Made by a program: the position numbers and the translations under genes
Shown: positions 14,981 through 45,010 of the stretch, in pieces
Layout: the number at the start of each line of letters is the position of its first letter
Numbering within the stretch: position 1 is the stretch's first letter
The notes under the pieces: generated by a model
Databases searched by the model: none
What the model was told of the DNA's origin: nothing
What the model saw: only the letters and a program-made list of their open reading frames with translations
Origin: an uncultured Alphaproteobacteria bacterium
GTDB taxonomy: Bacteria; Pseudomonadota; Alphaproteobacteria; HIMB59; GCA-002718135
NCBI GenBank assembly: GCA_902524385.1
Contig: CABZCZ010000001.1
Coordinates: 135,941 to 199,940 of the forward strand
Length of the DNA: 64,000 nucleotides
Reading direction: 5' to 3'

Positions 14981-14990
14981 TAAATTAAGT

Positions 14991-15016: not shown

Positions 15017-15033
15017 ACAACAAAGGAGTTATT

Positions 15034-16916: not shown

Positions 16917-16941
16917 GCTATATAAATATTTTAATTCTCCA

Positions 16942-28588: not shown

Positions 28589-29005
28589 CTATAAATATAT
28601 TTTGTTTGATAAACCGTAAATTAAGATTACTGAAATAATAAAAGCAGCAAAAGAAAATGTTAGATCTATGATACTATTTTTTGCGCCTATGTCTTTATCA
28701 ATAAATTTAAAATAAAACATGAGATCATAAATTAGCTGAGCGGTTGCGACTAAAAAAAATAAATTATAAAAAACCCAAGTACCTTCTGGCCCATTGGGTC
28801 TAAAAAGAATATAAATACCCATAAAAACAAAGCCAAAAATAAAAGTTCCTACATAGCGCATTGGCAATATTCCACTTTGATCTACGTTATATTCTTTTAC
28901 TATTCCTTGAGGAAAGAAAAAAATTCTAATTAAAAAAATACTTAGAAGACCTATTATGGCTAGATGTAAAACTAAAAAGAGTAGATTATTAAAATTTTCA
29001 ATCAT
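28589..29005 (-). CDS. 4-TM membrane protein, paralogue family (copy 1)
   Basis: 138 aa. It shares M.E.FN..., ILF..GPEGTW.F and IIYGL..KIYL with 44482-44898 and, more loosely, with 44051-44461. Confidence 0.6.
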   Translation of the reverse strand: MIENFNNLLFLVLHLAIIGLLSIFLIRIFFFPQGIVKEYNVDQSGILPMRYVGTFIFGFVFMGIYILFRPNGPEGTWVFYNLFFLVATAQLIYDLMFYFKFIDKDIGAKNSIIDLTFSFAAFIISVILIYGLSNKIYL

Positions 29006-29201
29006 ATTTTCTTTTATCAGACATTACTGAAATATCATATTCAAAAGTAGATCATATATAAATCAAAATTGATCAAAATTAGATAAAACCAATATCATTT
29101 TTTTATAATAATAGTTTTTAGTTATATTTTAAATAGATTTATCCAGTTCTATGATAAGCTTCTTCAAAAACCTCGACTTTTAATTATAGTTTAATTATCA
29201 C

Positions 29202-29540
29202 TTAAGCTGGATCACCTTTAGCAGTAATTTGTTGAATCGCCTTATCATCTCTAAATTTAACAAACCACATAACTATACCTTTTCCAGTATCCCACTACTG
29301 TAATACGCTTATTACAAGTAAGTCATCTGATGAATGGTGAACTTCCGGTGTTAATTTTATTGATGTACCTATGCTACTTATTCTTTCTAGAATTACTTGT
29401 TTAGATTGAATAGTTTTTTGCGGACCTTTTGTAAGAGATCGCAACTCAAATTTATCATCCATCAAACTTGGTAAAGTTTCACGGTCTAAGTTGCTCATAT
29501 AATCAAACCACGCTTTTTTATATTTCTCTCCTAAATTCAT
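29202..29540 (-). pseudogene. NTF2-like gene interrupted by an in-frame TAG
   Basis: The 81-codon ORF ends at TAG (29295-29297). The same frame continues WDTGKGIVMWFVKFRDDKAIQQITAKGDPA* to 29202. This restores the full 113-114 codon length of the paralogue at 10515-10859. Confidence 0.6.
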
Positions 29541-29600
29541 TTTTTTATGATAAATTTTTTATTTAAAATTGCTATAATAAAATTAGAAAATAATCTTAGT

Positions 29601-31424
29601 ATGTTTAATTATAAAAATAAAACTTTAATTAACTTAATTTTATTATTTTTAGTATTTAATTTTATTTTTATTTCAACAACAGTTTTTGCGAAAAAAGACA
29701 AAATATTTATCTCAGATTTAGATAATCTTGGTAAATTTGAAGATGTTATAAATTTACCTGAAGAAATGTTTGAAGGATTCAATAATAACAGTTTTAAAGA
29801 AAAAGGAATGACTTCAGGAAAAAAAGTTGCTTATTATTTTATTACAAAAAAAAAGATACTAGAAAAATATCCTCATAACATGATGAAGGCTATGGCCTAT
29901 TTTGAAATATATTTTTTACAAACATTAAAGGATAAGGAAAAAAATTTAGAAAGATTTAAAGAAGATAACTATAATTCTAACGACATACATTCTATCAACA
30001 CCTTGCTATCATTAAATAAAGCAAGAGAAAGTATGAGAAAAGCTGTTGGCTTAACATTAGAAGATTCACCTGAAGAAGCTATAAAAAGATTTTGGCTAAT
30101 GAATACTTATCTTTCAAAAGGAATAATAAAAACAAAAAAGATTGATTCAAAAATAAAAAAAAAGATAAGTATAACAACTGATCTTAAATCTGATCTAAAA
30201 GGCCTTAAAACATTGATTGAAAAAGAATTAGAAGATAGACTTTTAAAAAAAGATTTTAATAAAGAATTAAAAAATTATGTAAGAAATATTAAAAAGAAAA
30301 TTGCAAAATTAAAAAAAATTGATCTTCAAAATATTGATTTTATAAATAATAAAAACCAGGAAAATATTATTTCCTCAAATCAATTGGAAGAAGTTATTAA
30401 TATTATAGATAATAACGTTTTATCTCTTCTGTACAATGATATTGAAATTTACAGTAATCATGATGAATTACAAAAATCATTATCCTTACTAGATTTAGCT
30501 GATTACGCACTTTCAAAAACATTAGAATTTTATCCAAAAAAATATGTATCAGATTTAAGTGAAGTTGATATGAGTTACTTAAGCGAAGAAGAATTAGTAA
30601 CTATTAATGAAATATCCTCACAGTCTAAAATTAATAATAAAATCAAAAATAAAGAATTACTCAAAACTTTATATACTTTAGAAAATATTGATTATGATAC
30701 AGTAAGTTTTATTGAAAAAATTAATAATCTTGGAATAGCTACAAATGAAATTAGCATTAGTTATCAATCCTTAGAAAAAATGAAAACATGGAATGCAAAA
30801 GATTGGGCGTCATCGTATAAAAATGAAATACCAAAAGAAATTTATGATGAAAATGGAGATATTGTTGAGGTTTTATCAGATATTAATATTGAAGATATAA
30901 AAGCTCAAATAGCTATAGATGAGTTTAGAAAATTAAGTGATGAGTTTTCATCAATTGCAAATGATATTAAAAATGAGAATTTAAATATTTCAGAAATTTT
31001 AGAAAATACAGATTTTTCAATTGAGTTAGATAAATATGATAAATTTTTTATGATTTATGGATACAGTGATTTTAATGACTATGTAACCGCATGGAATAGT
31101 AGTTGGGATCGTGATTATTCTCGTGATGAATTAGTAGATTTAATAAATCAACCACAAAATACTGATATCGCAACTGCAATTAATGAAGTGGATACAGATG
31201 GACTAGGATTTGATGCAGGAGCTTTGGCATCTAGTGTTGGGATGGAATTAGCTGATGTAGCTTCCCAAGTAGCTAATGCAGTTGCAGCAGATGTATCTGT
31301 TGATTTAGAAGCTGTTTCAAAAGGGCTTGGGTATTCAAGTTTTTCAGATGCTGTATCAGCATATAATGAGAAATATGGCACTAATTATACTGATGCTGAA
31401 GCAAAAGAAGCATTAGGATTATAA
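29601..31424 (+). CDS. large exported hypothetical protein, Lys/Glu/Asn-rich
   Basis: The ORF is open from 29547. ATG 29601 gives a signal-anchor (NLILLFLVFNFIFISTTVFA). The C-terminal 90 aa are Ala/Val/Asp-rich. No recognisable domain. Confidence 0.5.
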   Translation: MFNYKNKTLINLILLFLVFNFIFISTTVFAKKDKIFISDLDNLGKFEDVINLPEEMFEGFNNNSFKEKGMTSGKKVAYYFITKKKILEKYPHNMMKAMAYFEIYFLQTLKDKEKNLERFKEDNYNSNDIHSINTLLSLNKARESMRKAVGLTLEDSPEEAIKRFWLMNTYLSKGIIKTKKIDSKIKKKISITTDLKSDLKGLKTLIEKELEDRLLKKDFNKELKNYVRNIKKKIAKLKKIDLQNIDFINNKNQENIISSNQLEEVINIIDNNVLSLLYNDIEIYSNHDELQKSLSLLDLADYALSKTLEFYPKKYVSDLSEVDMSYLSEEELVTINEISSQSKINNKIKNKELLKTLYTLENIDYDTVSFIEKINNLGIATNEISISYQSLEKMKTWNAKDWASSYKNEIPKEIYDENGDIVEVLSDINIEDIKAQIAIDEFRKLSDEFSSIANDIKNENLNISEILENTDFSIELDKYDKFFMIYGYSDFNDYVTAWNSSWDRDYSRDELVDLINQPQNTDIATAINEVDTDGLGFDAGALASSVGMELADVASQVANAVAADVSVDLEAVSKGLGYSSFSDAVSAYNEKYGTNYTDAEAKEALGL

Positions 31425-32174
31425 TTATTCATCAATATAAAATACCTCTTTGTAAAATTTATCTTTAGGTGCATTAAAATTTTTCTCATTCTTTCTTAGT
31501 TCAATAAGACAGTGATCAATGAGATCAATTTTAGCATTTAAAAATTTAATATTTTGCGGAATAGGAATGTGAATAGGGTATCCTTTGATAAACTCTACAT
31601 GTAAGTCGTATCCACCCATATAAAATTCTTTTAAGATTTTACCTTTATTTAAGAGATAATTATTCGATGATTCATGAATAATGGCACTTGCTTTAGAATT
31701 ATTTCTTTCAAGAGACTCAAATAAAGTATTATTTTTTATAATTTCCATTGTGTAGGGATAGAGTTCTAATTTTTTCATATCACTAAAGGATAATTCTTTA
31801 TCAAAAGGCGTTAATTGTAATGTTTCTAACCGTACATAATTTATAATTTCTGGTGCATTGTCAAAAAGGGCTGCATAAAGGCTTACAACGATCCTCGTTC
31901 CAGTAAAATCAACTGTAGTAAGCTCATACCCACAAAGACTTACGTCATCTTGTTCATCAAAAACAACTAAAGGATCAAAATAAAATGTTCTTTTAGGATA
32001 TTCTTGTGCTTCAGTAATAATGAGTTTGTCATTTCCCTGATCAAGGGGAAGTTCTTTTTTAATAAATTCTTTAGAACTTAGTAATTGATCACCCTTAGCA
32101 GCACCAGTTAGAAGGAGAACAATAATAAGGAGGGAGAAAAGAAAAATTATAATTCTTTTGATAACTGGTGCCAC
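31425..32174 (-). CDS. hypothetical exported/anchored protein
   Basis: 249 aa. GTG start. N-terminal TM segment IIIFLFSLLIIVLLLTG. Confidence 0.45.
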   Translation of the reverse strand: MAPVIKRIIIFLFSLLIIVLLLTGAAKGDQLLSSKEFIKKELPLDQGNDKLIITEAQEYPKRTFYFDPLVVFDEQDDVSLCGYELTTVDFTGTRIVVSLYAALFDNAPEIINYVRLETLQLTPFDKELSFSDMKKLELYPYTMEIIKNNTLFESLERNNSKASAIIHESSNNYLLNKGKILKEFYMGGYDLHVEFIKGYPIHIPIPQNIKFLNAKIDLIDHCLIELRKNEKNFNAPKDKFYKEVFYIDE

Positions 32175-32269
32175 TAAAACTTCTATAAAAATAAATTTTG
32201 ATAAAAATGAGAAATCATTAAGGTAATATTAAGAACAAATCTTAATCTAAACATATTTTAAACCCGAAT

Positions 32270-33115
32270 TTGCCTAAATTAATAAATAGAAATATTTCTG
32301 TGGCACTGAGTCTAAAAAATATTCATTATAAAATTATAAAATTAATCATTTTAAAACTCCTCTTAAGTGCCACACCTTTATTAGCTCATTACGAACTACC
32401 AAGAGAGATTGACTTAATGATGATTGAACATGATTTAAATAAATGTTCCAAAGGTAAAATTGATAGTTATTTTTTTCACAAAGAAAAAGATCCAGATTAT
32501 TGGCTAGGAATTTATACTAGTTCTAATCTTGATTTAGAATGTCTAAGGGAACAATTTCAAAATAAGATTACTAATTACCCAGTTAATTTTTTAAACAATC
32601 CTAGGATTAAAGTTTCACATGATTTGAGCTATTATAAATCTTACATTACAAATTTTAATAGAGTAGTTTGTGGTGAAAGATGTTACCTTGATGAAGATTC
32701 AATTTTATTTGTAGATGATAATTATTGGTACATCTATGATTTATATAATTCTTATGGACACAAAGCGAATTTTATAAAAACTTTAGATAATAAAATTCAT
32801 ATTCAATTATTAGAGTCAACTCATATTAAAAATATTGTATTTGATATTAATACTAAAGATTTTTTATATCTTTATGATGGAATTTTAGAATTTCATGATG
32901 ATTATTATATTGCCACACATTCAAAAAGCTATTTTTATGGAGGAGGAGCCTTTTGGTATTCGGCTAAAAGAGATTATCAAAATAATATTTTAGAGTTAAT
33001 TGATTTAAAAACCAACTTTTCAAATTGTGAAGATACAAAATTATATTCTTGGTCTGGTCAATTATATGATTTTATTTTGGAAACTAATAATTTACAAAAT
33101 TGCAGGGAGCATTAA
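32270..33115 (+). CDS. hypothetical protein (first gene of the co-directional block)
   Basis: 281 aa. TTG start in the track, so the start is uncertain. Signal-like segment. Confidence 0.4.
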   Translation: MPKLINRNISVALSLKNIHYKIIKLIILKLLLSATPLLAHYELPREIDLMMIEHDLNKCSKGKIDSYFFHKEKDPDYWLGIYTSSNLDLECLREQFQNKITNYPVNFLNNPRIKVSHDLSYYKSYITNFNRVVCGERCYLDEDSILFVDDNYWYIYDLYNSYGHKANFIKTLDNKIHIQLLESTHIKNIVFDINTKDFLYLYDGILEFHDDYYIATHSKSYFYGGGAFWYSAKRDYQNNILELIDLKTNFSNCEDTKLYSWSGQLYDFILETNNLQNCREH

Positions 33116-33384
33116 TGGAATCTTTATCAAGGGTTATTTTATTTTTAACATCTTATTTTATCGTTTTAGCTTTATCTTTTAGCATCAATATAGAATTTGA
33201 ATATCTACAAAGTGGATTATTCTTATTTATTTCTATAATTATTGCATCTTGGCTCTATTATTTACATTTTAAGAAAAAAGAATCTCCAGAATTTCAAAAA
33301 GAAGTTTTGTATGTCATGTTTTTTCTCTGTTTTGTAACATCTACATGGTCATTTAAATTAAATTATTTTCATTTGTATGATTAA
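33100..33384 (+). CDS. small membrane protein
   Basis: 94 aa, 3 hydrophobic segments. It overlaps its neighbours by 16 nt and 8 nt. Confidence 0.4.
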   Translation: MQGALMESLSRVILFLTSYFIVLALSFSINIEFEYLQSGLFLFISIIIASWLYYLHFKKKESPEFQKEVLYVMFFLCFVTSTWSFKLNYFHLYD

Positions 33385-33688
33385 TAATTTCTGGTTTTAT
33401 TTTTTCCTAACTCCAGTCTTAGTAGGGACAATTATTTTATCTATTCCATCCTTTTATTACTCATCAATTAATCCTCCAGTATTTGAGGATGCTGTATCAA
33501 CATGTAAAGATATTAGTAATGAAGATGTTTACGCTACTCAATATGGAACGCTTCAAGATAAGTGCATTGCAAATTATATGGGAGAGCCAAGAGATTGGGA
33601 ATACTTTTATATTTTAATTAGCTTTATTGGGATAAGTTTTATTATACCATTATTGATATTTATAACTTATAAATTAATAGTTTCATAA
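33377..33688 (+). CDS. small membrane protein
   Basis: 103 aa, with TM segments at both ends. Confidence 0.4.
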   Translation: MINNFWFYFFLTPVLVGTIILSIPSFYYSSINPPVFEDAVSTCKDISNEDVYATQYGTLQDKCIANYMGEPRDWEYFYILISFIGISFIIPLLIFITYKLIVS

Positions 33689-33762
33689 ATCTTATTCATA
33701 TCAAAACAATATATGACTTTTTTTATTATTCTATATCTTCAAAATATAGATATAATTTAAAT

Positions 33763-33999
33763 GTGAAAAAAATTGAAATCGAAATTGATGAAAATATTGA
33801 AATTATAAAAAATACAATTTTGAGATTGAGCTACATATTTACAGATTATAATTTTTCCCATGAATATAACAAAATTATTATAGAAGGTAAAAATTTAATC
33901 TATGAAGAGATTAAAGAAAAGGTATTTTATTATATTTACAAAGAAAAGATTAATTTACAAAATGCTTCTATTCGAAAAAAAATTTATGAATCTTTCTAA
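33763..33999 (+). CDS. hxsD: candidate HxsD-like small protein
   Basis: 78 aa with a GTG start. It sits directly upstream of the first rSAM gene, coupled by TAATG, as HxsD does. Sequence similarity to the family motif is weak. Confidence 0.45.
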   Translation: MKKIEIEIDENIEIIKNTILRLSYIFTDYNFSHEYNKIIIEGKNLIYEEIKEKVFYYIYKEKINLQNASIRKKIYESF

Positions 34000-35417
34000 T
34001 GAATTTATTTCCATATCAATTTCATAATATCAATAATAAGAAACTTATTACAAATGATGCTGGAGAATTTTTTTTTACAAATGAAAAGCACTTAGATAAA
34101 CTCATAAAAAGAGAGATAGACGGTAAATTTACAAAGTTTTTGTTAAATAAAGGTTTTATGTATGAGAAAGAAAATGACCTGTATTGGAATAATTTCAAAT
34201 ATAAATTAGTAAAAAGAAAAAAACTACCTGATCAACTTAGTTATTTTATGATCATTCCAACTCTAAGATGTAATTTAAATTGCAGTTATTGTCAGGTTTC
34301 AAGAGTTGATGAAAAAGCTAAGAACTATGATTGGAGTGCAGAGGATTTAAAATTATTTTTAAATTTTTTAGAAACTAATAATACCACAAGAGGAAAAATA
34401 GAATTTCAAGGTGGAGAACCAACATTGCGGTTAGATATTATCAATAAGATTCAGCATTGGATTAAAAATAATAACTTAAATTTTGATTTAATAATTTGTA
34501 CTAATTTACAAAATTTATCCAATGATTTTAAAAAATTATTAGAAAATGAAAATGTATTCATAAGCACATCTATAGATGGGAAAAAATCAATTCATCAAAA
34601 ACAAAGGACAAAAGATAAAGGTACAACAGATGAATTTTATAAAAATTTAGATTTCGTATTAAAAAATTATGGAAATGATAAAATTTCAGCCCTGCCTACT
34701 TTTACTGATTTTTCTAAAATAGATGAAACTGTTGAATATTATAAAGAGTTAGGTCTAAAATCTATATTTCTTAGACCTGTTAATTTTCAAGGATTTGCCA
34801 GAAAAAAATATCCATCATCTTTAAATCAAGTCGATTTGTGGACAGATGCTTATTTTAAATCTTTAGATAAGATATTTTTAAATAATCATAAAAGTAAGGA
34901 TAGAATTTTAGAATTTGGATTTGAAAATATTTTAAAAAGAATTTTTAACGTTGGTTATAATGGTTATGTAGATTTACGTAGTCCAAATTTCTATGCAAAA
35001 GATAATGTAATTATTGATTACGATGGTAAATTTTACCCATCCGATGAAGCTAGAATGCTAACTAGAATTAAGTTAATGGATTTTTCAATTGGTAATTTGA
35101 GAGATGGCTTTGATAATGATAAGCTTTCAAAATTTAATTGGAATTCAATGAATGAAACAAATCCTGATTGTATTAATTGTGCATATCAACCTTATTGTGG
35201 AATTGATATTGTCGATGATATATCAAGATATAGTAGGGCTGATTTACCAAAATATTTAACTTCTTTTTGTCAAACTCATATGAAAAAATTTAATTATGTA
35301 TTTGATAAAATTATATCAATGGATCCAGTTAATTTATTTAATATTAATGGTCATCTAACTAAAAATTTTAATTATCAACCACCATTTGGACAAATTTACT
35401 ATGATACGACTCACTAG
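33999..35417 (+). CDS. hxsB: radical SAM/SPASM-type maturase (HxsB-like)
   Basis: 472 aa. The CxxxCxxC cluster motif is in IIPTLRCNLNCSYCQV, followed by GGEPTL. C-terminal Cys cluster NPDCINCAYQPYCG...FCQTH. Confidence 0.8.
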   Translation: MNLFPYQFHNINNKKLITNDAGEFFFTNEKHLDKLIKREIDGKFTKFLLNKGFMYEKENDLYWNNFKYKLVKRKKLPDQLSYFMIIPTLRCNLNCSYCQVSRVDEKAKNYDWSAEDLKLFLNFLETNNTTRGKIEFQGGEPTLRLDIINKIQHWIKNNNLNFDLIICTNLQNLSNDFKKLLENENVFISTSIDGKKSIHQKQRTKDKGTTDEFYKNLDFVLKNYGNDKISALPTFTDFSKIDETVEYYKELGLKSIFLRPVNFQGFARKKYPSSLNQVDLWTDAYFKSLDKIFLNNHKSKDRILEFGFENILKRIFNVGYNGYVDLRSPNFYAKDNVIIDYDGKFYPSDEARMLTRIKLMDFSIGNLRDGFDNDKLSKFNWNSMNETNPDCINCAYQPYCGIDIVDDISRYSRADLPKYLTSFCQTHMKKFNYVFDKIISMDPVNLFNINGHLTKNFNYQPPFGQIYYDTTH

Positions 35418-36492
35418 AACAATAGAACATGAATTAACGGTAAAAGAATCTTTTGTTGTAAAAATTGTTAATAAAAATTTTGAATTACTTGAAGAGAATG
35501 AAGCAATATCTAAAAATAATGGTAATTTCATAGAGGTTATTACAAAATATGGTAAATTTAAATTTGAAAATATAGATGAGCCATTATCAATAGATGAAGT
35601 TTTAATAATATTTACTGAGGTAAATAAATGTCAAAGATTCTTTAGACCATCAGCTACAATCAATACAATTTTATTAACGGAAGAATGTGATCAACTTTGT
35701 ATTATGTGCTCTCAACCACCTAAAAATAAAAGATACGATCATTTTGATCTATTTTATGAGGCTGCTATGCTAATACCTTTTAATTCGACTTTAGGTATTT
35801 CTGGAGGAGAGCCAACTTTACTTAAAAAAAATTTATTTAAATTCCTTAATAGGGTTATTACTGTGAGAAATGATATTCGCTTTCATATTTTGAGTAATTG
35901 TCAGCATATTGAGAATGAAGATATTAAAATATTAGCTAAATTGTCAAAAAATATTTTATGGGGAATACCTGTATATTCTCATATTCCTCAAACACATGAT
36001 ACTATTGTCGGTAAAAAAGGCTCTTTTGTAAGAGTTATGGAAAGCTTCAACTATTTTATACAAACTGGTTCTAGAGTTGAATTAAGAACAGTCTTGCTTC
36101 AACAAAATTACGAAGATTTACCAAAATTATCAGAATTTATAACTACACATCTAAACTGGATTGAGTTTTGGGCAATAATGCAATTGGAAAATTTTGGATA
36201 CGCTAAGATGAATTGGGATAGAATATTTTTCGATAATTCAAAAAGCTTTGAAAATTTAGGTTATGCAATTAACACTATTTCTGCAAAAAGAATGAATGTT
36301 TCACTTTATAACTTCCCTCTTTGTACAATACCAGATTTCTATAGAAAATATGCAGTTAGATCAATTTCTGATTGGAAACAAAAATATCTTGATGAGTGTA
36401 CGGGCTGTGTTGAAAAAGATTATTGTGGTGGATTTTTTGAATGGTACAATAAAGAAAAAGGATATAATAAAATTGGATTGAGAAAGTCATGA
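35386..36492 (+). CDS. hxsC: radical SAM maturase (HxsC-like)
   Basis: 368 aa (or start at ATG 35401). Motifs LTEECDQLCIMCSQ (CxxxCxxC) and GGEPTL, with a C-terminal CTGCVEKDYCGG. It overlaps hxsB and joins hxsA through an ATGA junction. Confidence 0.8.
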   Translation: MDKFTMIRLTRTIEHELTVKESFVVKIVNKNFELLEENEAISKNNGNFIEVITKYGKFKFENIDEPLSIDEVLIIFTEVNKCQRFFRPSATINTILLTEECDQLCIMCSQPPKNKRYDHFDLFYEAAMLIPFNSTLGISGGEPTLLKKNLFKFLNRVITVRNDIRFHILSNCQHIENEDIKILAKLSKNILWGIPVYSHIPQTHDTIVGKKGSFVRVMESFNYFIQTGSRVELRTVLLQQNYEDLPKLSEFITTHLNWIEFWAIMQLENFGYAKMNWDRIFFDNSKSFENLGYAINTISAKRMNVSLYNFPLCTIPDFYRKYAVRSISDWKQKYLDECTGCVEKDYCGGFFEWYNKEKGYNKIGLRKS

Positions 36493-37040: not shown

Positions 37041-37413
37041 TTTTTATATTTTAACATTAGTCTTATTACTTGGAATAATAATTGGTTCATTATGGAAAAT
37101 ACCATTAAAATATTTTCTAATTAATATTTACCAAGAGGATTTTAGCGAGTTAGTTTATAAATGTGATAATTCTATGAGAGATCACTTTATTGCAAAAGCT
37201 CAAGTTTTAAAAAATTATAATGAAGATACTATTGAAAATTTAGAACAAACTGAATTAGGTTTAATTGATTGCCATGATTATGATTTATTAAGAAAAAAAT
37301 TAATTTTACTTGGTCTTACAAACAATGAACTTTCATATATGGGCTTGAAAGCTATAGAAAAAAATGGAGCTGATTTAAAAAAATTAGTAGAAATACATGA
37401 AATACTTTATTAG
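37009..37413 (+). CDS. hypothetical N-terminally anchored protein
   Basis: 134 aa with one TM segment (FYILTLVLLLGIIIGSLW). It overlaps hxsA by 32 nt and the next gene by 17 nt. Confidence 0.45.
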   Translation: MNYLNIFKSNSFYILTLVLLLGIIIGSLWKIPLKYFLINIYQEDFSELVYKCDNSMRDHFIAKAQVLKNYNEDTIENLEQTELGLIDCHDYDLLRKKLILLGLTNNELSYMGLKAIEKNGADLKKLVEIHEILY

Positions 37414-38647
37414 TTTTTTATTAATTTTTTTTTCTGTAAGTGTATTAGCATCTTCTTTTTATTCTAAACTATTAAAAGAAGCAGCTTTAAAAAATAATTT
37501 TAAACAAATATCAGTTGTAAATAAAAAATTTGATAAAAAAAAATCTTCTTTAGGAAAGAAGTTTTTTCATGACACGATGTTAAGTTTTAATTCTGATATG
37601 TCTTGTGGCACTTGCCATCTAACTAAATTTAGTTCTGCAGATGGGTTACCAAATGCTGTTGGGGTAGGAGGAGAAGGTGAGGGAATTGATAGAATGTTTA
37701 GTGACGGTGAAATTGTTCCTAGGAATACTTTACCTCTATGGGGAAGGGGATCAAAAGATTTCAATACACTTTTTTGGGATGGTAAAATTACACAAGTTGA
37801 TGGCGAAATAATAAGTCAATTAGGCTTATTAACAAAAAATTATGCTTCAATGGATAATGAATATGAAATCATTCAGGATTTTTATCAAGATCCACTTATA
37901 TCAGCAGTTCACCTACCATTTGTAGAAATTAGAGAATTAGTTGCAGATGATGAAGAAGTAACAGAAGTTTTAAAAAAAGAAAGTATTGATACTGCTATGA
38001 ATGTTTTTTATGACTTAACTGAGAGAATAAAAAAAGATTCAGACTATACAAAAGAAATTAAAGAGATTTATAATTTAGAAGTCGATCAAATAGAGTTTTT
38101 TGTTGTTGCAGATGCTATTGCACATTTTATTAGAGATGAGTTTGCAATTAAAGAAACTATATTTTCTGATTTTGTATTTAATGACGGAAAATTAAATGAC
38201 GATGCAATAAGAGGAGGTTTGTTATTTTATGGAAAAGCTAAATGTAGTAGTTGCCATAGTGGAACTTTATTTTCAGATCTAGATTTTCATTCAATTCCAT
38301 ATCCTCAAGTCGGTTTTGGTAAAAATGGCTTTGGAGTAGACTATGGAAGATTTAATGTAACTTACGACCCTGACGATTTATATAAGTTTAGAACGCCTCC
38401 GTTGATAAATGTTGAGTTCACCAAGCCTTATTCACATTCCGGATCTGTTTTTGATTTAAAAGAAGCAATTAGATATCATTTTGATCCTCTGAAAAATTTG
38501 GATTTACAAAATATCTCAGATCTAGAAAGAGTTGAAATGTATAAAAAACTTAAAATATCAGGTCAAAATATTAATCAGATACCCTACTTAGATGAAAATG
38601 AATTAGATCAATTAGTTGAATTTTTAAAAACTTTAAGTTTTAAATAA
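37397..38647 (+). CDS. di-haem cytochrome c peroxidase / MauG-family protein
   Basis: 416 aa with a signal peptide. Two CxxCH motifs (CGTCH, CSSCH). Family signature FRTPPLINVEFTKPYSHSGSVFDLKEAIRYH. Confidence 0.85.
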   Translation: MKYFISFLLIFFSVSVLASSFYSKLLKEAALKNNFKQISVVNKKFDKKKSSLGKKFFHDTMLSFNSDMSCGTCHLTKFSSADGLPNAVGVGGEGEGIDRMFSDGEIVPRNTLPLWGRGSKDFNTLFWDGKITQVDGEIISQLGLLTKNYASMDNEYEIIQDFYQDPLISAVHLPFVEIRELVADDEEVTEVLKKESIDTAMNVFYDLTERIKKDSDYTKEIKEIYNLEVDQIEFFVVADAIAHFIRDEFAIKETIFSDFVFNDGKLNDDAIRGGLLFYGKAKCSSCHSGTLFSDLDFHSIPYPQVGFGKNGFGVDYGRFNVTYDPDDLYKFRTPPLINVEFTKPYSHSGSVFDLKEAIRYHFDPLKNLDLQNISDLERVEMYKKLKISGQNINQIPYLDENELDQLVEFLKTLSFK

Positions 38648-38654
38648 TATTTAA

Positions 38655-39422
38655 ATGAACTTATTGACTAAATTTAGTTTTTATACAATTCTGGTATTTC
38701 TAATTGTATTTAGTTTAAGTTATTTAAGTGGATTATATGAAACGGAAATAAAACCTCGTTTTAATGGTTATTCGAAAAATAATATTTCTTTTAAGAATAA
38801 AAATGAAATTAAAATCAATGGCAATAAAATTAATTCAGAAATAATAAGTTTTTTACATTATTACAACGAAAATTTAAAATTAGATTCATTAAAGGACAAT
38901 GTAAATTTAAAAAAGATAAACATAAAGTTTTTAGAATGTGAAACAAATAAGTATAAAAAAAATAAACAAGTTTCTAGTAATAAAAAAGATTTCAAATTCG
39001 ATCCAAATATTAAATCCAATTTTATATTTAATATAAATTGTTTACATAATCTTATTCAAAAAGGAGAAAAAACCCATATTATATATGATATCAATCAGTA
39101 TAATTGCTCATGGAGAGGTTACAAAAAAGTTTATCAAATTGATAATCACTATTTATTAGATATAACCGAAAAAGTATGTGGAACTTTACCATCTAGATTT
39201 CATAATTTTTATTTAGTCAAAATAGATAATAATGAAATTTATATTGTCGATTCAATATTATCAGGAAGATATCCAATAAATAGGTTAAATTATTTTAAAA
39301 TAATTAATAAAAAAATAAAAATTATTACCGATAATTGTAATGAGGGCTCTAAAAATTGTTTTGGTTTAAGGCCAGAATATTTTGAATTAAATTTTGAAGA
39401 AAACTTTAACAATAACTCTTAG
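38655..39422 (+). CDS. hypothetical anchored protein (last gene of the block)
   Basis: 255 aa with an N-terminal TM segment. Asn/Lys-rich. It starts 7 nt after the MauG-like gene. Confidence 0.45.
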   Translation: MNLLTKFSFYTILVFLIVFSLSYLSGLYETEIKPRFNGYSKNNISFKNKNEIKINGNKINSEIISFLHYYNENLKLDSLKDNVNLKKINIKFLECETNKYKKNKQVSSNKKDFKFDPNIKSNFIFNINCLHNLIQKGEKTHIIYDINQYNCSWRGYKKVYQIDNHYLLDITEKVCGTLPSRFHNFYLVKIDNNEIYIVDSILSGRYPINRLNYFKIINKKIKIITDNCNEGSKNCFGLRPEYFELNFEENFNNNS

Positions 39423-40059
39423 CTTTTTTTGCAGCATCTAGAACTTGTATCAATAAATTTCTTTTATCTAAAATTTGTTCTTTCTCAAAATTACTTTTAT
39501 TCCATAATCCTTCGTAAATAACATTATTTACTAAATAAACACCTTTGCCATGCCTTTCACCATCTTTGAAATTTCCATAATAATATTCATTTGGTGAAAA
39601 AAAATAAATACCTAAACCTTCTCTAAGACCATTTTTGTATAAGCCTAAATATCTATGAGAAGAATTTTCCCAAGATGTTAGTCCATATCCATGATTTTTA
39701 TTTAAATATATTTGCCCAATGTAATTACCATTAGAAAATTTCTGATTAACGCAAGCTAAACCATTTTCAGGAAGTATATTTTGTTTTTTTTCAGCAACTA
39801 ACGTCTTATTTTTATTTTTAATATATAGATTATATTCTGCTACTATAGTTTCTCTATCTCCATAACTACATTTTTTATTGTTTGTTTTATAAATTACTCC
39901 ATCATTTTTCTTACAATAATAATCTTTAATAATTGCTGCTTTAGTTTCAGTAATTTTGTAACTATTATTATTTGATAAATTATTTGATGTCGTTCCACCT
40001 AAACATCCATATAAAAATAAAAAGGACATAAGTATTAAACACTTATTTATATTTAACAT
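39406..40059 (-). CDS. MORN-repeat lipoprotein
   Basis: 217 aa. Lipobox-like LFLYGC. Repeats of the YxGxxxxGxxxGxG type (YIGQIYLNKNHGYG, YLGLYKNGLREGLG, YYGNFKDGERHGKG). Confidence 0.7.
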   Translation of the reverse strand: MLNINKCLILMSFLFLYGCLGGTTSNNLSNNNSYKITETKAAIIKDYYCKKNDGVIYKTNNKKCSYGDRETIVAEYNLYIKNKNKTLVAEKKQNILPENGLACVNQKFSNGNYIGQIYLNKNHGYGLTSWENSSHRYLGLYKNGLREGLGIYFFSPNEYYYGNFKDGERHGKGVYLVNNVIYEGLWNKSNFEKEQILDKRNLLIQVLDAAKKAKSYC

Positions 40060-40109
40060 TTTCTAGACATTCTAAATCATAGTTTTTTTTATTAAACAAA
40101 AATAAAGTA

Positions 40110-40565
40110 TTATAAAAATGAAATTTGATCAATGGGAGACATATGCCCATTTTCAATTTCATCTAATGTAGAATTCGCTTTTTCTATTAATTTTATAGCA
40201 TTATTTAGAGCCCACATTTGTTTTGTTGCTAAATTTTCGTCAAAAACCTTGTTGCCTAAGTCTATTTGATTTTGTTCTTCTTTAATTTTATTAATTATAT
40301 ATTCTGCAGCACTGATCGCATTAAAAGAGACATTAGTAAGTTTTGAAGCTTTTCCCATAAACTCTTTTCTCATCATTATTGTTTCTTTAAGATCAAGTCT
40401 TTCTCTTCTTTTTTTTAACCACCCTTCATTAGCCGCCTGTTTTCTAAGTGTAGACAATGAATAGTTGAATTCAGTAGCGATATCTTGAAGAGTAGGGTAC
40501 TCATTTCTATTTCCTTTTATATAATAATTACGTGCTTCAGTGTAATCAGGACGTTTTCTTGTCAT
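40110..40565 (-). CDS. phage-type HTH protein (terminase-small-subunit-like N-terminus)
   Basis: 151 aa. ...YYIKGNRNEYPTLQDIATEFNYSLSTLRKQAANEGWLKKRRE resembles the HTH of phage small-terminase/DNA-packaging proteins. Called by pattern only. Confidence 0.45.
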   Translation of the reverse strand: MTRKRPDYTEARNYYIKGNRNEYPTLQDIATEFNYSLSTLRKQAANEGWLKKRRERLDLKETIMMRKEFMGKASKLTNVSFNAISAAEYIINKIKEEQNQIDLGNKVFDENLATKQMWALNNAIKLIEKANSTLDEIENGHMSPIDQISFL

Positions 40566-40648
40566 AAAAACATTAATGCTAATGATTCTCTTTAAAGAAA
40601 GTTCTAGAAAAAAATATTTGTTTAAAAAAATTTAATAATGTGAATAAA

Positions 40649-41383
40649 TTAGTTTTTTTTATTACTTAAAAGTAAATTTTTAAATTCTTCAACAGCAACT
40701 GTTGCAGGTTTGTGAATGGCAAAATCAAATTGATTTTGATTACGTGATGGTTCTAAATTTAATTCAACAGTTGGCTTATTCATATCTTTGAACATTGTAA
40801 CAAATCCAGCGGCAGGGTAGACCTCTCCAGAGGTACCAATTGAAACAAACATGCTAGATTGCTCAGCTAAATCGTGAATTTCATCCATTTGCATGGGCAT
40901 TTCACCAAACCACACAATGTGAGGTCTCATTTGTGAACCGCATTCAGGGCATTTATGGGTCTCATTTAGGTCCACCAGCCACTCAAATACATGATTATCA
41001 TTCATCATACATCTAGCTTTATTTAACTCACCATGCATATGAATTATTGATGATGACCCGCCAATCTCATGCAAATTATCGATATTCTGTGTAACTATAT
41101 GAATTTTATATGTTTTTTCAAATTCATGAAGTAAAATATGGGCCCTATTTGGCTTAATTCCTGAATTTAGTTCTTTTCGACGTTTATTATAAAAATCATA
41201 GACAAGAGTAGGGTTTCTATAGAATCCTTCTGGACTGGCAACATCTTCAATCCTATGATTATTCCAAAGTCCATCTGAGTCTCTGAATGTTTCAATCCCA
41301 GACTCTTTGCTTATACCAGCACCCGTTAATATAAAGATCTGGGAATCAGCTGAAATCTGCGGTAATTGTTCCATTTGATACAC
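40649..41383 (-). CDS. cobB: NAD-dependent protein deacylase (Sir2/CobB family)
   Basis: 244 aa. Motifs GAGISKESGIETFRDSDGLW, QNIDNLHE, the CPECG zinc site, and a GTSG-type segment. Confidence 0.9.
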   Translation of the reverse strand: MYQMEQLPQISADSQIFILTGAGISKESGIETFRDSDGLWNNHRIEDVASPEGFYRNPTLVYDFYNKRRKELNSGIKPNRAHILLHEFEKTYKIHIVTQNIDNLHEIGGSSSIIHMHGELNKARCMMNDNHVFEWLVDLNETHKCPECGSQMRPHIVWFGEMPMQMDEIHDLAEQSSMFVSIGTSGEVYPAAGFVTMFKDMNKPTVELNLEPSRNQNQFDFAIHKPATVAVEEFKNLLLSNKKN

Positions 41384-41503
41384 TATATACAGTATTTTAT
41401 TACACGTGAAAATCTATATCTAGTTTGTAATTTTAGAAATAGATTTAGATAATATATATAAATTATTGAAATATATACTTAATATTTATTGCTTGACTAT
41501 TAT

Positions 41504-41527
41504 TTACGATAACTGTAATTATCGTAA
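41504..41527. promoter_or_regulatory. 9-6-9 inverted repeat TTACGATAA-ctgtaa-TTATCGTAA (lox/dif-like site or operator)
   Basis: A perfect 9-bp inverted repeat with an asymmetric 6-bp spacer. It lies 9 nt upstream of the recombinase ATG and just downstream of TTGACT (41493-41498). Confidence 0.4.
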
Positions 41528-41535
41528 TATATATT

Positions 41536-42594
41536 ATGGTTAAAATATCACTTAATGATAAAGTAACAAAGCTAAAGGAAAAATCTAAGGCTAAGAACAC
41601 ACAAGATAAGTACCAAGGTGATTGGTTAAAATTTATAGATTACTGCAATGATAAATATAAATGTAGCCCATTAGATGTAGATGATATGGATAGCGCATAT
41701 GCATTAACTGCAAATTATATGGATTGGCTACATGAAGATCCAGAAGCTAAAATACTAAAAGGCACAAGCAATATTCCTGGAAGAGAAAAAGTAAATAACA
41801 ACCCCTACTCCTCAACTGCCTATAAAGCATCGACCATTCAAAGAATTCTTGCATCAATTACTTATAAATACAGAGTAAACGGATTTCAATTTGACAGAAA
41901 AAATCCAAATATATCAGAAACTATAAGCGCTATAGTTAGAGATGAAAAGAATAATCAATCTGGGCAAGCAAAAGAGTTATTAAAAAAAGATATTGAAAAA
42001 ATAATAGATAATATACCGACAGATAAAGATGATATTAGAAATATTAGAGATAAAGCTCTCATACTAGTAGGTTTTTATAGTTTTTGTAGAAGATCAGAAC
42101 TGCTTGGCATGAAATATGAACATTTAAACTTTGAAAAAGATGGAATTCAAGTTTTAATTCCCTTTTCAAAAACAGATCAAAAGGGTGAAGGCAGAATGAT
42201 ATATTTACCAAGAAATGATTCTACGTATTGTCCAGTTAAAGCACTTAAAAACTGGTTAGAAAGTGCTTTGATTGATACTGGCCCCCTCTTTTATAAGATT
42301 AACAAAGCAAATAATATTGAAAAATATATTCTCAATAATAAAAATCAAAAAGTAAGTTTAACAGATACAAGTTTTGTTATAATTTTAAAGAAGAGAGCCG
42401 AAGAAGCAGGGTTAAATAATTGCGATAAAATTTCTGGTCATAGTCTAAGGATTGGATCGATTACTCAAGCTAGGATGAATGGAGTTCCAACTCATGAAAT
42501 TATGGCTCAGAGCGGTCATAAAACAACACAGATGATTGATAGGTATACTAAGTTAACAAATATTAAAGAAACAAGTGCTGCAAAAAAATTATGA
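41536..42594 (+). CDS. tyrosine recombinase/integrase, Cre-like
   Basis: 352 aa. Catalytic pattern ...CRRSEL... (Arg), HSLRIGS (His-x-x-Arg), GHKTTQMIDRYT (His...Tyr). The overall layout resembles Cre (DIRN...; SGHS.R.G...). Confidence 0.9.
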   Translation: MVKISLNDKVTKLKEKSKAKNTQDKYQGDWLKFIDYCNDKYKCSPLDVDDMDSAYALTANYMDWLHEDPEAKILKGTSNIPGREKVNNNPYSSTAYKASTIQRILASITYKYRVNGFQFDRKNPNISETISAIVRDEKNNQSGQAKELLKKDIEKIIDNIPTDKDDIRNIRDKALILVGFYSFCRRSELLGMKYEHLNFEKDGIQVLIPFSKTDQKGEGRMIYLPRNDSTYCPVKALKNWLESALIDTGPLFYKINKANNIEKYILNNKNQKVSLTDTSFVIILKKRAEEAGLNNCDKISGHSLRIGSITQARMNGVPTHEIMAQSGHKTTQMIDRYTKLTNIKETSAAKKL

Positions 42595-42601
42595 ATATTA
42601 T

Positions 42602-43024
42602 TTAATAAAATGCAATAGCTGCAGCTGTTAAAACAATTATTAAAAGCCCTCTTCCACTCATGGTTGATATTTTCATTATTTTTTTATTAGGAGGTAATTT
42701 TTTTTTTGAAGAATTGTATACATGAAAATTGGTAAATATTGAAAAGCCTAGAAGAAAACCAGCAGCAATTAATTTAACAGTAAATGCACTATTAATTATA
42801 AATCCATTGTATAAAATGATTGAAAGTAAAATGCCTGTAACCCAAAGTATAAGTAAAGATAGAAGCCCAATGTATCCTAATATTTTTAAAATTTTAGCAA
42901 CATGTATTTCAGGAATTTTATTTTCTTTGGTATAGACTGATTGAATTACTCCTCCACCTACTAAAACTCCACCTGAAAATACTATTGCAAGATAATGAAA
43001 TAATTTAAGTATTACTATTGTCAT
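42602..43024 (-). CDS. hypothetical 4-TM membrane protein
   Basis: 140 aa and hydrophobic throughout. Confidence 0.5.
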   Translation of the reverse strand: MTIVILKLFHYLAIVFSGGVLVGGGVIQSVYTKENKIPEIHVAKILKILGYIGLLSLLILWVTGILLSIILYNGFIINSAFTVKLIAAGFLLGFSIFTNFHVYNSSKKKLPPNKKIMKISTMSGRGLLIIVLTAAAIAFY

Positions 43025-43087
43025 TAAATTTTAATATTAATATATTTATCACATTTGATAAGATAAAAAAAAATATATACTTATTTT

Positions 43088-43483
43088 ATGAAAACTTTAA
43101 AAATTATTTTATTATCTTTTATTTTCACCATTAGCATTAATGGATATGCCAAAGTTGGAGACACTTATGATTGTTCTGTCAATAATCACATAAGACACTA
43201 TTATAGCAGTTACACTAAACAAGGAAGTGGACCAGAAGATAGGTATAAATTTGATTTTTCTTTTTTGAGAGGTGATGAGAACTTAAAATTTCTTCCAGGA
43301 GAAGGAGCAAATTATTTTTCATCAATTGCATACAATTATTCTGAAAATTTTGAAAAAGAACGTTTTAAAGCATCTTCCATGAGTGATGGTCATTTAGCTT
43401 ATGATCAAGGAATGTTTACATTTGTTTTTAATGATTATGAGTATACAGTTATGTTAATAGCAAAATGTGAGGTTAATAAATGA
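43088..43483 (+). CDS. secreted hypothetical protein
   Basis: 131 aa. Signal peptide MKTLKIILLSFIFTISINGYA. Confidence 0.45.
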   Translation: MKTLKIILLSFIFTISINGYAKVGDTYDCSVNNHIRHYYSSYTKQGSGPEDRYKFDFSFLRGDENLKFLPGEGANYFSSIAYNYSENFEKERFKASSMSDGHLAYDQGMFTFVFNDYEYTVMLIAKCEVNK

Positions 43484-44019
43484 AAATAAAAAAAGGAGAT
43501 AAATTAGATGAGATTACACTACCAAAACATGATGGTAATGAATTTAATTTATCAGAAACTAAAGGAAAAAAAGTTTTATTGACTTTTTATAGAGTCGCTG
43601 GATGCACTTTTTGTAATTTAAGACTTCTTGAGTTTAATAAAAGATATAACGAATTTGGTCCAAATTTTACCCATGTAGGAATTTTTCATTCAAATGTTAA
43701 TCTTTTAAGATCAAATATGAAGAAGCACGGCCCTATCCCATTTACTGTTTTGGCTGATGAAAAATTTAAATATTTTGAAAAATATTCAATAGAGCGTAGT
43801 TGGTTTAAATTATTTTTAGCAAGTATTTATAAAACATTTGCAATCTTTCCGGCCTTAATAAGAGGTTTTATGCCTATTCCTCTTGGAGGATATTTTAATA
43901 CTGCAGTAACAGATATAATGATTAATGAAGAAGGTATAGTGGAAGAAGTTTTGTATGCAAAAAAACATGCTGCTGATCATTTTGCATTTAATAAAGTAAA
44001 GGAATTTTCATTAAGTTGA
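43480..44019 (+). CDS. AhpC/TSA-redoxin-family protein
   Basis: 179 aa. The stretch KKVLLTFYRVAGCTFCNLRL carries a thioredoxin-fold CxxC. ATGA junction with the upstream gene. Confidence 0.65.
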   Translation: MKIKKGDKLDEITLPKHDGNEFNLSETKGKKVLLTFYRVAGCTFCNLRLLEFNKRYNEFGPNFTHVGIFHSNVNLLRSNMKKHGPIPFTVLADEKFKYFEKYSIERSWFKLFLASIYKTFAIFPALIRGFMPIPLGGYFNTAVTDIMINEEGIVEEVLYAKKHAADHFAFNKVKEFSLS

Positions 44020-44020
44020 T

Positions 44021-44048
44021 AAAAGCTGGGAATTCAATCCCAGCTTTT
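44021..44048. terminator. bidirectional rho-independent terminator
   Basis: AAAAGCTGGGA-attcaa-TCCCAGCTTTT lies between convergent genes. Confidence 0.8.
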
Positions 44049-44050
44049 AG

Positions 44051-44461
44051 TTACATGTAAATTATATCTGACATATTATATAAAAGATATACTGCTATAA
44101 ATAAAAATACATGCCCTATTACTTCATCAGCAACATCACTTTTTGCATCAGGGTCTATAAATTTTAATCTTTGGGCCCAACTTAAAATAACTTGAGCAAA
44201 AGAAAGTAAAAATCCGTTTACAAAAAATATCCAGCAAGATTGAGGTCCGTTTTCTCTAAATAATATCCAAATTCCAATTATTACAATTGGCACAATAAAT
44301 GTTCCTATAATTCTAACAATTGGCAAAGCCTTTTCACCTAAATCATATCTTGTAACAAGTGAATTTGGTGAAAATACAGTTAGGAAACCATAGTAAGATA
44401 TTCCTAATAAATTAATTAAAAATAAAATTAGATTTAAAGTACCTCCAAAATTTTCAACCAT
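44051..44461 (-). CDS. 4-TM membrane protein, paralogue family (copy 2)
   Basis: 136 aa. MVENFGG..., ILFRENGPQSCW, and a C-terminal ...IIYM. Confidence 0.6.
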   Translation of the reverse strand: MVENFGGTLNLILFLINLLGISYYGFLTVFSPNSLVTRYDLGEKALPIVRIIGTFIVPIVIIGIWILFRENGPQSCWIFFVNGFLLSFAQVILSWAQRLKFIDPDAKSDVADEVIGHVFLFIAVYLLYNMSDIIYM

Positions 44462-44481
44462 AATAACTCCTTATAAAATTA

Positions 44482-44898
44482 TTATAGATAAATTTTATCA
44501 AATAAACCATAAATTATAATTAAGTTTAATACTAGAACTACTGCAGATACAATTGGCTGCTCTATTGTCGAATTAACCTTATCTCTTCCAAAAAGAAAAG
44601 CTATTTTAAAATGAAAACAAAAATTGTACACAGTTGCCATTGCAAAGACAATAACATTAATTATAAAAAAAGGCCAAGTACCTTCGGGTCCAGTAAATAA
44701 AATATAAAGACCAACAAAGAAAAAAGCAGTAACCCAAAAAATTCCAAAATTGGCAGCTGGTGCAGCACTTGAGTCAGTGTTATATTTTGCAAATTCTTTT
44801 TCTTTATTAAATAGAAATGTAAACGAGTAATAACCTGCTAATGCAATGTTAATTATGTATAAAATCAAATAAAAAATTCCATTAAAACTTTCAACCAT
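44482..44898 (-). CDS. 4-TM membrane protein, paralogue family (copy 3)
   Basis: 138 aa. MVESFNG..., ILFTGPEGTWPF, ...IIYGLFDKIYL. It is the closest paralogue to 28589-29005. Confidence 0.6.
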   Translation of the reverse strand: MVESFNGIFYLILYIINIALAGYYSFTFLFNKEKEFAKYNTDSSAAPAANFGIFWVTAFFFVGLYILFTGPEGTWPFFIINVIVFAMATVYNFCFHFKIAFLFGRDKVNSTIEQPIVSAVVLVLNLIIIYGLFDKIYL

Positions 44899-45010
44899 AA
44901 AAGCCTCCTATAAAAGTTATTGTATATTTATATATTTGTTTTTTAAGATTCTGTGACAATAGTTACCATATTTGGCTGGTATTTTAAAAAAAATTTAGTT
45001 AAAAAAAAAT

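Follow-up and report, generated by a model that had tools for sequence, protein, structure and literature searches.

A strain-variable genomic island beside a conserved Cre-like recombinase gene in the marine lineage HIMB59

Which part of this marine bacterial locus varies between strains, where does the variable part stop, and what makes it vary? The locus lies in a 64-kb stretch of DNA from an uncultured alphaproteobacterium (the window; island coordinates are numbered from its first letter) which, like the relatives compared with it here, belongs to the HIMB59/AEGEAN-169 lineage, formerly SAR11 subclade V. The original prediction placed an accessory segment between 28.6 and 44.9 kb, bracketed by three paralogous membrane-protein genes (here c1, c2, and c3), and attributed it to insertion into, or recombination within, the paralogue array. 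The observation was largely right and the interpretation half right, the island being real but its limits and its cause being different. The strain-variable island occupies positions 29,099 to 40,109 (~11 kb) and not 28.6 to 44.9 kb, and it is likely one variant of a flexible genomic island located at a fixed site in HIMB59/"MarineAlpha5" genomes, with a content that turns over by homologous and illegitimate recombination. Boundaries and cause are thus corrected for a real hypervariable island of an abundant, little-studied ocean lineage.

Comparison loci were retrieved by a homology search with INT, the tyrosine recombinase encoded to the right of the island, which returned 76 loci from different species-level genomes, all of them single-amplified genomes (SAGs) or metagenome-assembled genomes and labeled Pelagibacteraceae, "MarineAlpha5," or HIMB59. 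These species loci were fetched as 20-kb stretches, and contigs of close relatives were added through exact-protein look-ups; loci and contigs are designated by L numbers. Exact look-ups with INT, c3, and the gene called HTH below gave no match, and homology-based retrieval was used for these. The window proteins were scanned against Pfam, NCBIfam, PHROGs, and PADLOC, and Rfam was used for RNA. The sizes of public 90%-identity protein clusters served as a stand-in for metagenome read recruitment.

Limits and contents of the island

The predicted strain-variable island was borne out, as contigs with an identical c1 protein diverge past 29.1 kb and the block is missing from two close relatives. 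Ten contigs that encode the same c1 protein have the sequence from 23.3 to 29.1 kb in common at ~95% identity and diverge completely from position 29,098 or 29,180; the left edge of the island is the upstream region of c1. Its right edge is the stop codon of a 151-amino-acid (aa) gene, which the original prediction had called a phage-type helix-turn-helix (HTH) gene and for which we retain HTH as a label; the genes for a CobB-type sirtuin and for INT come next. Past this stop codon, or past CobB where the 151-aa gene is damaged, sequences are unrelated between genomes. The left anchor (FtsX-ABC-GDSL-c1) and the right anchor (HTH-CobB-INT) recur in L001 to L011, in L102, and in the 76 species loci. 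CobB and INT are neighbors in 76 of 76 species, the GDSL lipase gene adjoins c1 in 11 of 11 c1-bearing contigs, and the exact c1 protein is present in 80 blocks of the collection.

Among genomes whose c1 proteins are 99 to 100% identical, the size of the site ranges from 0 to ~15.6 kb. Two relatives have no island: in L008 the 151-aa gene is directly joined to c1, and L102 shows the order cyclase-c3-c2-AhpC-m140-INT-CobB-HTH-c1-GDSL (m140 encodes a 140-aa membrane protein), with a 151-aa gene that is 99% identical. L002 holds 1.9 kb of different genes and L011 holds 7.5 kb, while L001/L018 carry an o249-o281 module and then a complete type I Zorya system, ~15.6 kb in total. The more distant L069 reads GDSL-pseudogene-HTH-CobB-INT, without c1.

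With a G+C content of 0.254, against 0.283 for the whole window, positions 29,099 to 40,109 rank lowest among 106 sliding 11-kb stretches. The low G+C attributed earlier to the entire segment between the paralogues therefore holds for the island, but positions 40,110 to 44,050 are normal (0.288). Because of this normal G+C and their conservation across the species loci, the latter are not accessory; the region from 40.1 to 44.9 kb is conserved backbone and a recombinant mosaic of old alleles.

To the left of CobB/HTH, 75 loci contain 536 open reading frames (ORFs), which fall into 214 protein clusters, 143 of them singletons. The cargo at this site across genomes consists mostly of defense systems and envelope or transport genes. 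The commonest recognizable functions are type I, II, and III restriction-modification (R-M), Dcm, SNF2/ResIII helicases, caspase-like proteases, and a MADS component, and many variants also contain transporters and oxidoreductases. The type I Zorya system (ZorA1, ZorB1, ZorC1, and ZorD1) is complete at L001:1-7313/L018:249-3545, from SAG AG-893-F05. By the cluster-size proxy, backbone proteins fall in clusters of 200 to 870 members (INT, AhpC, c2, c3, the cyclase, an ion channel, and MscS), whereas those encoded between 33.4 and 40.1 kb fall in clusters of 1 to 15 (o103, the Hxs proteins, o255, and the MORN protein); o249 and o281 are common despite their island position (clusters of 354 and 535). 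Contigs with the 151-aa gene are mostly shorter than 2 kb, which fits a place where assemblies break.

Islands at conserved positions have been described in HIMB59, two made of hypothetical proteins and one BREX-like, in a paper that contains 0 occurrences of "integrase" and "recombinase" (PMC10734472). The present island is not detailed gene by gene there and may be one of the two unannotated islands. Hypervariable regions are known from SAR11 (PMC3448164), and both replacement and additive flexible genomic islands have been reported (PMC4033161, PMC10872708). As in marine flexible and metagenomic islands, the site has a fixed position between core genes across species, strain-specific hypothetical, defense, and envelope genes, homologous recombination in its flanks, and low representation in metagenome-derived data (here by the cluster-size proxy); it differs from flexible islands in being both additive and replacement and in abutting a clade-wide Cre-like recombinase gene. 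Like defense islands or hotspots, the same site bears type I, II, and III R-M, type I Zorya, caspase-like, and helicase genes across genomes, but no recognized defense system was found in the window's own variant and many variants carry transporters and oxidoreductases. The island is a well-documented further case of a flexible genomic island/defense hotspot, and the presence of Zorya and R-M systems at the same site in other strains makes it useful for HIMB59 pangenomes and phage-host dynamics.

Junctions and turnover of the island

The junctions between island and backbone were observed directly, and the recombination mechanisms proposed below are inferred from them. A repeat search of 28 to 45.5 kb revealed no repeat family, and no att- or attC-type repeats flank or subdivide the island. 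Instead of repeats, gene remnants lie at the left edge. The 20-nucleotide (nt) scar next to c1 (Table 1) is the orphan 3' tail of an HTH-type gene, and in L008 the same sequence still terminates the live HTH gene; in L001, L004, L005, L007, and L009, the HTH remnant is ~35 nt long and frameshifted. A second remnant, at 29139 to 29180, derives from the 3' end of a different o249-family allele. In L027, an intact HTH gene is followed by one 568-aa Sel1/protease-like gene and then by a 60- to 68-nt orphan tail of the other HTH allele, downstream of which the sequence matches genomes that have that HTH allele intact.

Breakpoints within the HTH gene are scattered. Its 5' fragments end at profile positions 39, 42, 72, 88, 97, 113, 181, and 390, and orphan tails begin at positions 316, 397, 416, ~431, and ~444. 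The deletion junction of L102 lies within a 10-bp microhomology, TAGTTTTTTT, and in L023 and L005 sequences are fused at short stretches that they have in common. Scattered breakpoints and microhomology junctions weaken the case, initially considered, for a precise att site (core ATATGTCTCC) in the tail of the HTH gene. A chimeric ORF beside c1 in L005 (2-412) has a histone-deacetylase-like N terminus and an o249-family C terminus, joined at the shared peptide EGGYD.

The right flank (42602 to 46825 and its equivalents in L011 to L086) is made of distinct and deeply diverged classes of alleles: INT is ~90% or 77% identical, AhpC 94%, 70%, or 48%, c2 96%, 63%, or 36 to 39%, and the cyclase 97% or 60%, and c3 is present or absent. 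All pairwise combinations of the INT, AhpC, cyclase, and c3 classes were seen among 36 close genomes.

On the strength of the orphan tails, scattered breakpoints, microhomology, and mosaic flank alleles, we consider it likely that island content turns over by homologous and illegitimate recombination. Homologous recombination in the conserved flanks would have turned the right flank into a patchwork of old alleles. Cargo would be brought in, and tails of the 151-aa gene left orphaned, where homologous recombination acts on one side only, anchored in HTH-CobB-INT, and the opposite end is joined illegitimately. Deletions and fusions would be mediated by microhomology. The variants are probably held at low frequency by phage- or niche-driven selection. 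The catalogue of junctions (orphan tails, scattered breakpoints, microhomology, and four-gamete mosaics) provides unusually direct evidence of island turnover without dedicated mobility genes.

Several points weigh against this account. An orphan 3' end of a gene is also the classic footprint of integrase insertion into a gene end, and the scattered tail starts could come from later erosion. Foreign segments ending at a palindrome upstream of INT, 1.4 kb from the island edge, make some site-specific contribution to plasticity possible. The proposed selection is deduced from gene content only, the comparison genomes are mostly single-cell assemblies, in which chimeras are possible, and the cluster-size proxy is distorted by greedy clustering, with the common c1, ABC, and HTH proteins each sitting in one-member clusters.

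Table 1. Positions of features at the island and in its flanks (window numbering)
Feature	Positions	Strand	Evidence or remarks
GDSL/TesA-like lipase gene, left-flank anchor	27884-28513	+	Pfam Lipase_GDSL_2; NCBIfam PRK10528 below cut-off
c1, subfamily S4, small 4-helix membrane protein	28589-29005	-	ORF, BLASTP, AlphaFold model
Orphan 3' tail of HTH-type gene (..DDIGFI*), scar next to c1	29079-29098	-	20 nt
Island proper	29099-40109		Absent, shorter, or differently filled in relatives; lowest G+C in window
Indel block: 81-aa ORF (29295-29540, -) and 625-aa secreted/membrane protein (29547-31424, +)	29099-31434		Clusters of 153 and 74
Remnant of 3' end of other o249-family allele (..EVFEEAYHRTG*)	29139-29180	-	Common to L002, L003, and L011
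Semi-conserved left module: o249 (-), o281 (+), o94 (+), o103 (+)	31425-33688		Clusters of 354, 535, and 13
Hxs cluster: 78-aa ORF, HxsB, HxsC, HxsA-like, TIGR03982, MauG-like di-heme protein	33763-38647	+	NCBIfam, Pfam
HxsA-like protein, His-x-Ser repeats and C-terminal PG_binding_1 (peptidoglycan-binding) domain	36489-37040	+	Pfam, sequence
o255 unannotated membrane protein (+) and MORN-repeat lipoprotein (-), right end of cargo	38655-40059		ORFs, Pfam
Lineage-specific 151-aa gene (HTH)	40110-40565	-	dN/dS 0.14; often truncated in relatives
Conserved single-copy motif AATTTAATAAYGTGAATAAATTA	40629-40651		Directly 3' of sirtuin stop codon
CobB-type NAD-dependent protein deacylase (Sir2)	40649-41383	-	Pfam, NCBIfam; dN/dS 0.083
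Palindrome ATTTACGATAA-CTGTAA-TTATCGTAATA	41502-41529		INT promoter, between -35-like and -10-like boxes; candidate lox/dif-like core site or operator
INT, resident Cre-like tyrosine recombinase	41536-42594	+	Conserved in 76 species-level genomes
Right flank: 140-aa membrane protein (-), 131-aa ORF, AhpC/Prx-like redoxin (+)	42602-44019		Conserved but mosaic
c2, subfamily S1, backbone gene	44051-44461	-	Allele classes at 96%, 63%, and 36-39% identity
c3, subfamily S2	44482-44898	-	Presence/absence varies among close genomes; dN/dS 0.035

The resident recombinase and its palindrome

INT was identified as a tyrosine recombinase by Pfam and NCBIfam, as predicted. All 73 full-length copies of INT are intact, and the catalytic R, K, HxxR, H, and Y are invariant; its ratio of nonsynonymous to synonymous substitution rates (dN/dS), 0.067, is like that of housekeeping neighbors, and its family gave 6,420 matches in marine metagenomes. 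In a profile search of PDB, Cre was the nearest solved relative (E = 6e-9), XerA and XerD matched weakly, IntI4 reached E = 0.57, and XerH was absent from the sequence matches. Scores against the XerA, XerD, XerC, and XerS models were 19 to 55 bits versus cut-offs of 220 to 335. A structure model of moderate quality (predicted local distance difference test [pLDDT] score of 61) matched Cre/Tre, XerH, and XerA at TM-scores of 0.40 to 0.45, and in PHROGs INT matched phrog_1 integrase (1.9e-24).

The INT promoter contains an AT-rich, noncoding palindrome of ~28 bp with a 6-bp center, whose core, TTACGATAA-CTGTAA-TTATCGTAA (41504 to 41527), lies between TTGACT and TAATAT boxes. This 9-6-9 core is unique in the window and exact in 65 of 73 loci, with equivalents at ~9960 to 9990 in L011 to L086. 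In the most divergent relative, L083 (INT 65% identical; 9930 to 10000), the inner arms are kept and the spacer reads TTACAG, an exact reverse complement that leaves the site flipped. L106 and L107, which encode a 43% identical recombinase (INT''), have the site GTACGATAA-TAACTG-TTATCGTAC 35 bp upstream of the INT'' gene, and their outer arm positions are changed symmetrically, from T..A to G..C. The same two contigs (L106:2797-3270 and L107:630-1110) present two palindromic sites 153 bp apart, head to head, one upstream of a 76-aa INT remnant and the other upstream of the intact INT'' gene, with a co-directional sirtuin gene next.

In L080 (7528 to 10000) and L105 (1083 to 2350), a foreign SIR2'-INT' segment stops right beside the resident INT, in the hybrid site TTACGTTAA-CTGTAA-TTATCGTAA. 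The SIR2' and INT' proteins are 50% and 40% identical to the resident ones, respectively, and the pair, found in two independent samples, travels with a Dcm methylase gene and small ORFs. Taken together, the sequence comparisons suggest that the palindrome is a recombination site and that site and recombinase form a conserved module. As it overlaps the INT promoter, the palindrome could also be a simple operator, and most of these observations fit an autoregulatory operator just as well.

Does INT, then, build the island, as an integron platform or hotspot organizer that captures circular DNA at its cognate site? CobB and the 151-aa gene stand between the palindrome and the variable block in 72 of 73 loci, and because of this separation island turnover is not attributed to INT. 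The palindrome and the SIR2-proximal motif are each single copy per locus, no related copies being present inside islands or at the c1 edge at up to 5 mismatches, the junctions are scattered and make use of microhomology, and INT is not of the IntI type. Against these observations stand an intact and constrained recombinase, divergent INT lineages that each possess their own upstream palindrome with symmetric arm changes, foreign DNA that ends at a hybrid site, and orphan HTH tails that look like attL/attR duplications. On balance, we regard construction of the island by INT as unlikely. The locus resembles a chromosomal integron in that a resident tyrosine recombinase gene is transcribed away from the variable region and has a conserved site in its promoter region. 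It differs in having two conserved genes between the site and the variable region and inserts that are multi-gene and on both strands, and an integron was ruled out by the lack of an IntI family match and of attC repeats. The motif at 40629 to 40651, kept with or without the 151-aa gene following it, was likewise ruled out as a cassette repeat, being single copy per locus.

Another role for the module can be considered. Pelagibacter ubique, which belongs to a different lineage from HIMB59, is reported to be without dif/Xer, and XerS and XerH form gene-plus-site modules (PMC2731167). In Legionellales, the attachment site of the mobile element LME-1 exposed a hidden single-recombinase XerL/dif system, and the features expected of such sites were listed (PMC9765430). 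Those shown by the INT module are conservation, palindromicity, AT-richness, a noncoding position, and gene linkage. Like single-recombinase Xer/dif modules and Cre/loxP, it combines a clade-conserved recombinase with an AT-rich palindrome that has a 6-bp center beside the gene, foreign DNA ends in a hybrid copy of the site at INT, and the closest relative of solved structure is Cre, with XerH and XerA ranking high in the structural comparison. It differs from the Xer/dif modules in that INT is far below the Xer family cut-offs and the palindrome overlaps a promoter. Around 41.5 kb, no clean switch in GC skew, GC3 skew, or gene orientation was seen within the 64-kb window.

INT and its palindrome might accordingly be put forward, as a tentative proposal with a rather small chance of being right, as a putative dimer-resolution or docking module. 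By analogy with XerS/difSL, XerH/difH, and XerL/dif, a possible role would be chromosome-dimer resolution in HIMB59-type bacteria. Mobile elements with a related recombinase and sirtuin (L080/L105 and L106/L107) would then possibly exploit the palindrome by inserting there, and the island might have a dif-like site as its neighbor, in keeping with the frequent presence of horizontally acquired DNA at the terminus. If INT indeed resolves dimers or docks mobile elements, the module would close a gap among streamlined marine alphaproteobacteria, Pelagibacter having been reported without dif/Xer.

Still less likely than construction by INT is that the region from the c1 edge to INT represents a decayed integrative element or prophage remnant, with INT as its integrase and the 151-aa gene as an excisionase or a terminase-like HTH gene. 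The phrog_1 match, the position of the INT gene at one end of the variable region, and the INT'/SIR2' pairs that travel with Dcm methylases and other genes and abut the resident site fit such an origin, but INT, CobB, and HTH are vertically conserved over 76 species under strong purifying selection and stay in the empty-site genomes. Phage structural and replication genes are missing, PHROGs matched only INT and Sir2 and none of the island proteins, the 64-kb window contains no tRNA gene, and no repeat of the palindrome flanks the region. Neither INT nor INT' has relatives on viral contigs, and a search of viral sequences with the palindrome pattern gave 51 matches (about chance by our own rough estimate), none with the right spacer or linked genes; viral origin was ruled out by the lack of viral INT/INT' relatives and of a viral mimic of the palindrome. 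The 151-aa gene, for its part, does not support the phage-type HTH label, with no match in Pfam, NCBIfam, PHROGs, or PADLOC, and its 388 homologues are all unannotated and restricted to the lineage.

Tycheposons, cited in PMC10872708 as cargo elements of marine picoplankton that are linked to tRNA genes and have tyrosine recombinases, likewise place a tyrosine recombinase beside variable cargo in streamlined marine bacteria. INT differs in being resident, vertically inherited, and outside the variable cargo, and a tRNA-linked island or tycheposon was ruled out by the absence of tRNA genes from the window. The adjacent SIR2 gene was ruled out as a defense gene, since it is of the CobB type and has no PADLOC match.

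Paralogous genes, cargo, and flanks

Three minus-strand ORFs are present where predicted, and c1, c2, and c3 encode 138, 136, and 138 aa, respectively. Their paralogy holds at the protein level, with significant BLASTP similarity for every pair (c1/c2, 36% aa identity, E = 1e-23; c1/c3, 31%, 7e-19; c2/c3, 25%, 5e-14), and the motifs quoted earlier can be seen in these alignments. An AlphaFold model with four long helices (pLDDT 90; predicted TM-score, 0.83) fits the four transmembrane (TM) segments that had been claimed. At the nucleotide level, similarity fails, c1 and c3 sharing just 29 nt at 83%. No family match was found in Pfam or NCBIfam and no significant structural match in PDB, and the 132 homologues of the family are all unannotated, marine, and ~138 aa long. 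The three genes are ancient paralogues of an uncharacterized small membrane protein and old backbone genes. Four subfamilies can be distinguished: S4 (c1 type) lies beside the GDSL gene, S1 (c2) and S2 (c3) lie between AhpC and the cyclase, with S2 often absent, and S3 takes the place of S1 in more distant genomes. Only in L068 do an S4 and an S3 copy stand in tandem, on the right-hand side of INT, the sole hint of an ancestral paralogue array.

The paralogues do not bracket the accessory segment, since only c1 touches an edge and c2 and c3 lie 3.9 kb past the true right edge, which is formed by the HTH/CobB/recombinase block. With 25 to 36% aa identity and essentially no DNA similarity, they are not recombination partners of each other; any split of an array would predate the radiation of the family and therefore cannot explain present variability. 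Insertion of a 15-kb segment into an array of the three paralogues in tandem, or its origin by recombination between them, is thus the least probable explanation of all, a very remote one: the copies share a strand, the L068 tandem indicates that a c1-type gene and another subfamily can be neighbors, and c3 is present or absent among close genomes, but usable DNA homology is lacking, the conservation of 40.1 to 44.0 kb in 76 species makes any split ancient, the empty-site loci L008 and L102 retain HTH-CobB-INT-m140-AhpC between c1 and c2, and L069 has the GDSL-HTH-CobB-INT order without c1.

Returning to the island and its cargo in the window, the indel block at its left end is missing from L001, L004, L007, and L009. 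The neighboring o249, o281, o94, and o103 are unannotated, each with a signal peptide or TM segments. The Hxs locus named in the original prediction is well founded, as HxsB, HxsC, TIGR03982, and the MauG-like TIGR03981 all score above their NCBIfam cut-offs. The radical-SAM maturases HxsB and HxsC reach 393.8 bits with TIGR03978 (cut-off, 370) and 305.4 bits with TIGR03977 (cut-off, 267.9), respectively. The HxsA-like protein, at 90.5 bits, is below the cut-off of 121.65 and nonetheless has HGSHGSHGSHGSHQSH repeats, and the 78-aa ORF at the HxsD position matches no NCBIfam model, HxsD included. Compared with the Hxs system of NCBIfam (TIGR03977 to TIGR03982), the four recognized genes thus form one operon-like block here, with the differences lying in HxsA and in the HxsD position. 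The function of the Hxs system is not known in any organism.

The Hxs genes are rare (90%-identity clusters of 1 to 15 members) and occur in none of 77 species loci. They recur, in the same context, in ~14 short Tara/Logan contigs that are 99.2 to 99.8% identical to the window, versus ~5% divergence in the flanks. In L097, o255 is deleted and a 99.2% identical Hxs block is joined to a MORN allele of 91.8% identity. The predicted MORN lipoprotein does contain MORN repeats and an LYGC lipobox. Signal peptides, TM segments, or a lipobox mark most of the other island proteins; together with the peptidoglycan-binding HxsA-like protein, these features suggest that the cargo in the window is envelope directed.

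Past INT, insertions of 0.6 to 1.6 kb lie between INT and the 140-aa gene in L034, L035, L037, L048, and others (~11056 to 12640). Between the 140-aa gene and AhpC, the window has an unannotated 131-aa ORF (43088 to 43483; segment 43047 to 43479). Because neither the 77 species loci nor the close relative L102 contain it, this ORF is a second, tiny accessory insertion.

Elsewhere in the window, the sole Rfam match was 5_ureB_sRNA (1689 to 1974, minus strand; 98.5 bits), antisense within a 568-aa ORF (1536 to 3242); it probably reflects conserved urease coding sequence and not a small RNA gene. Positions 12000 to 18000 have a clearly higher G+C content, 0.35 to 0.39 versus 0.28 overall.

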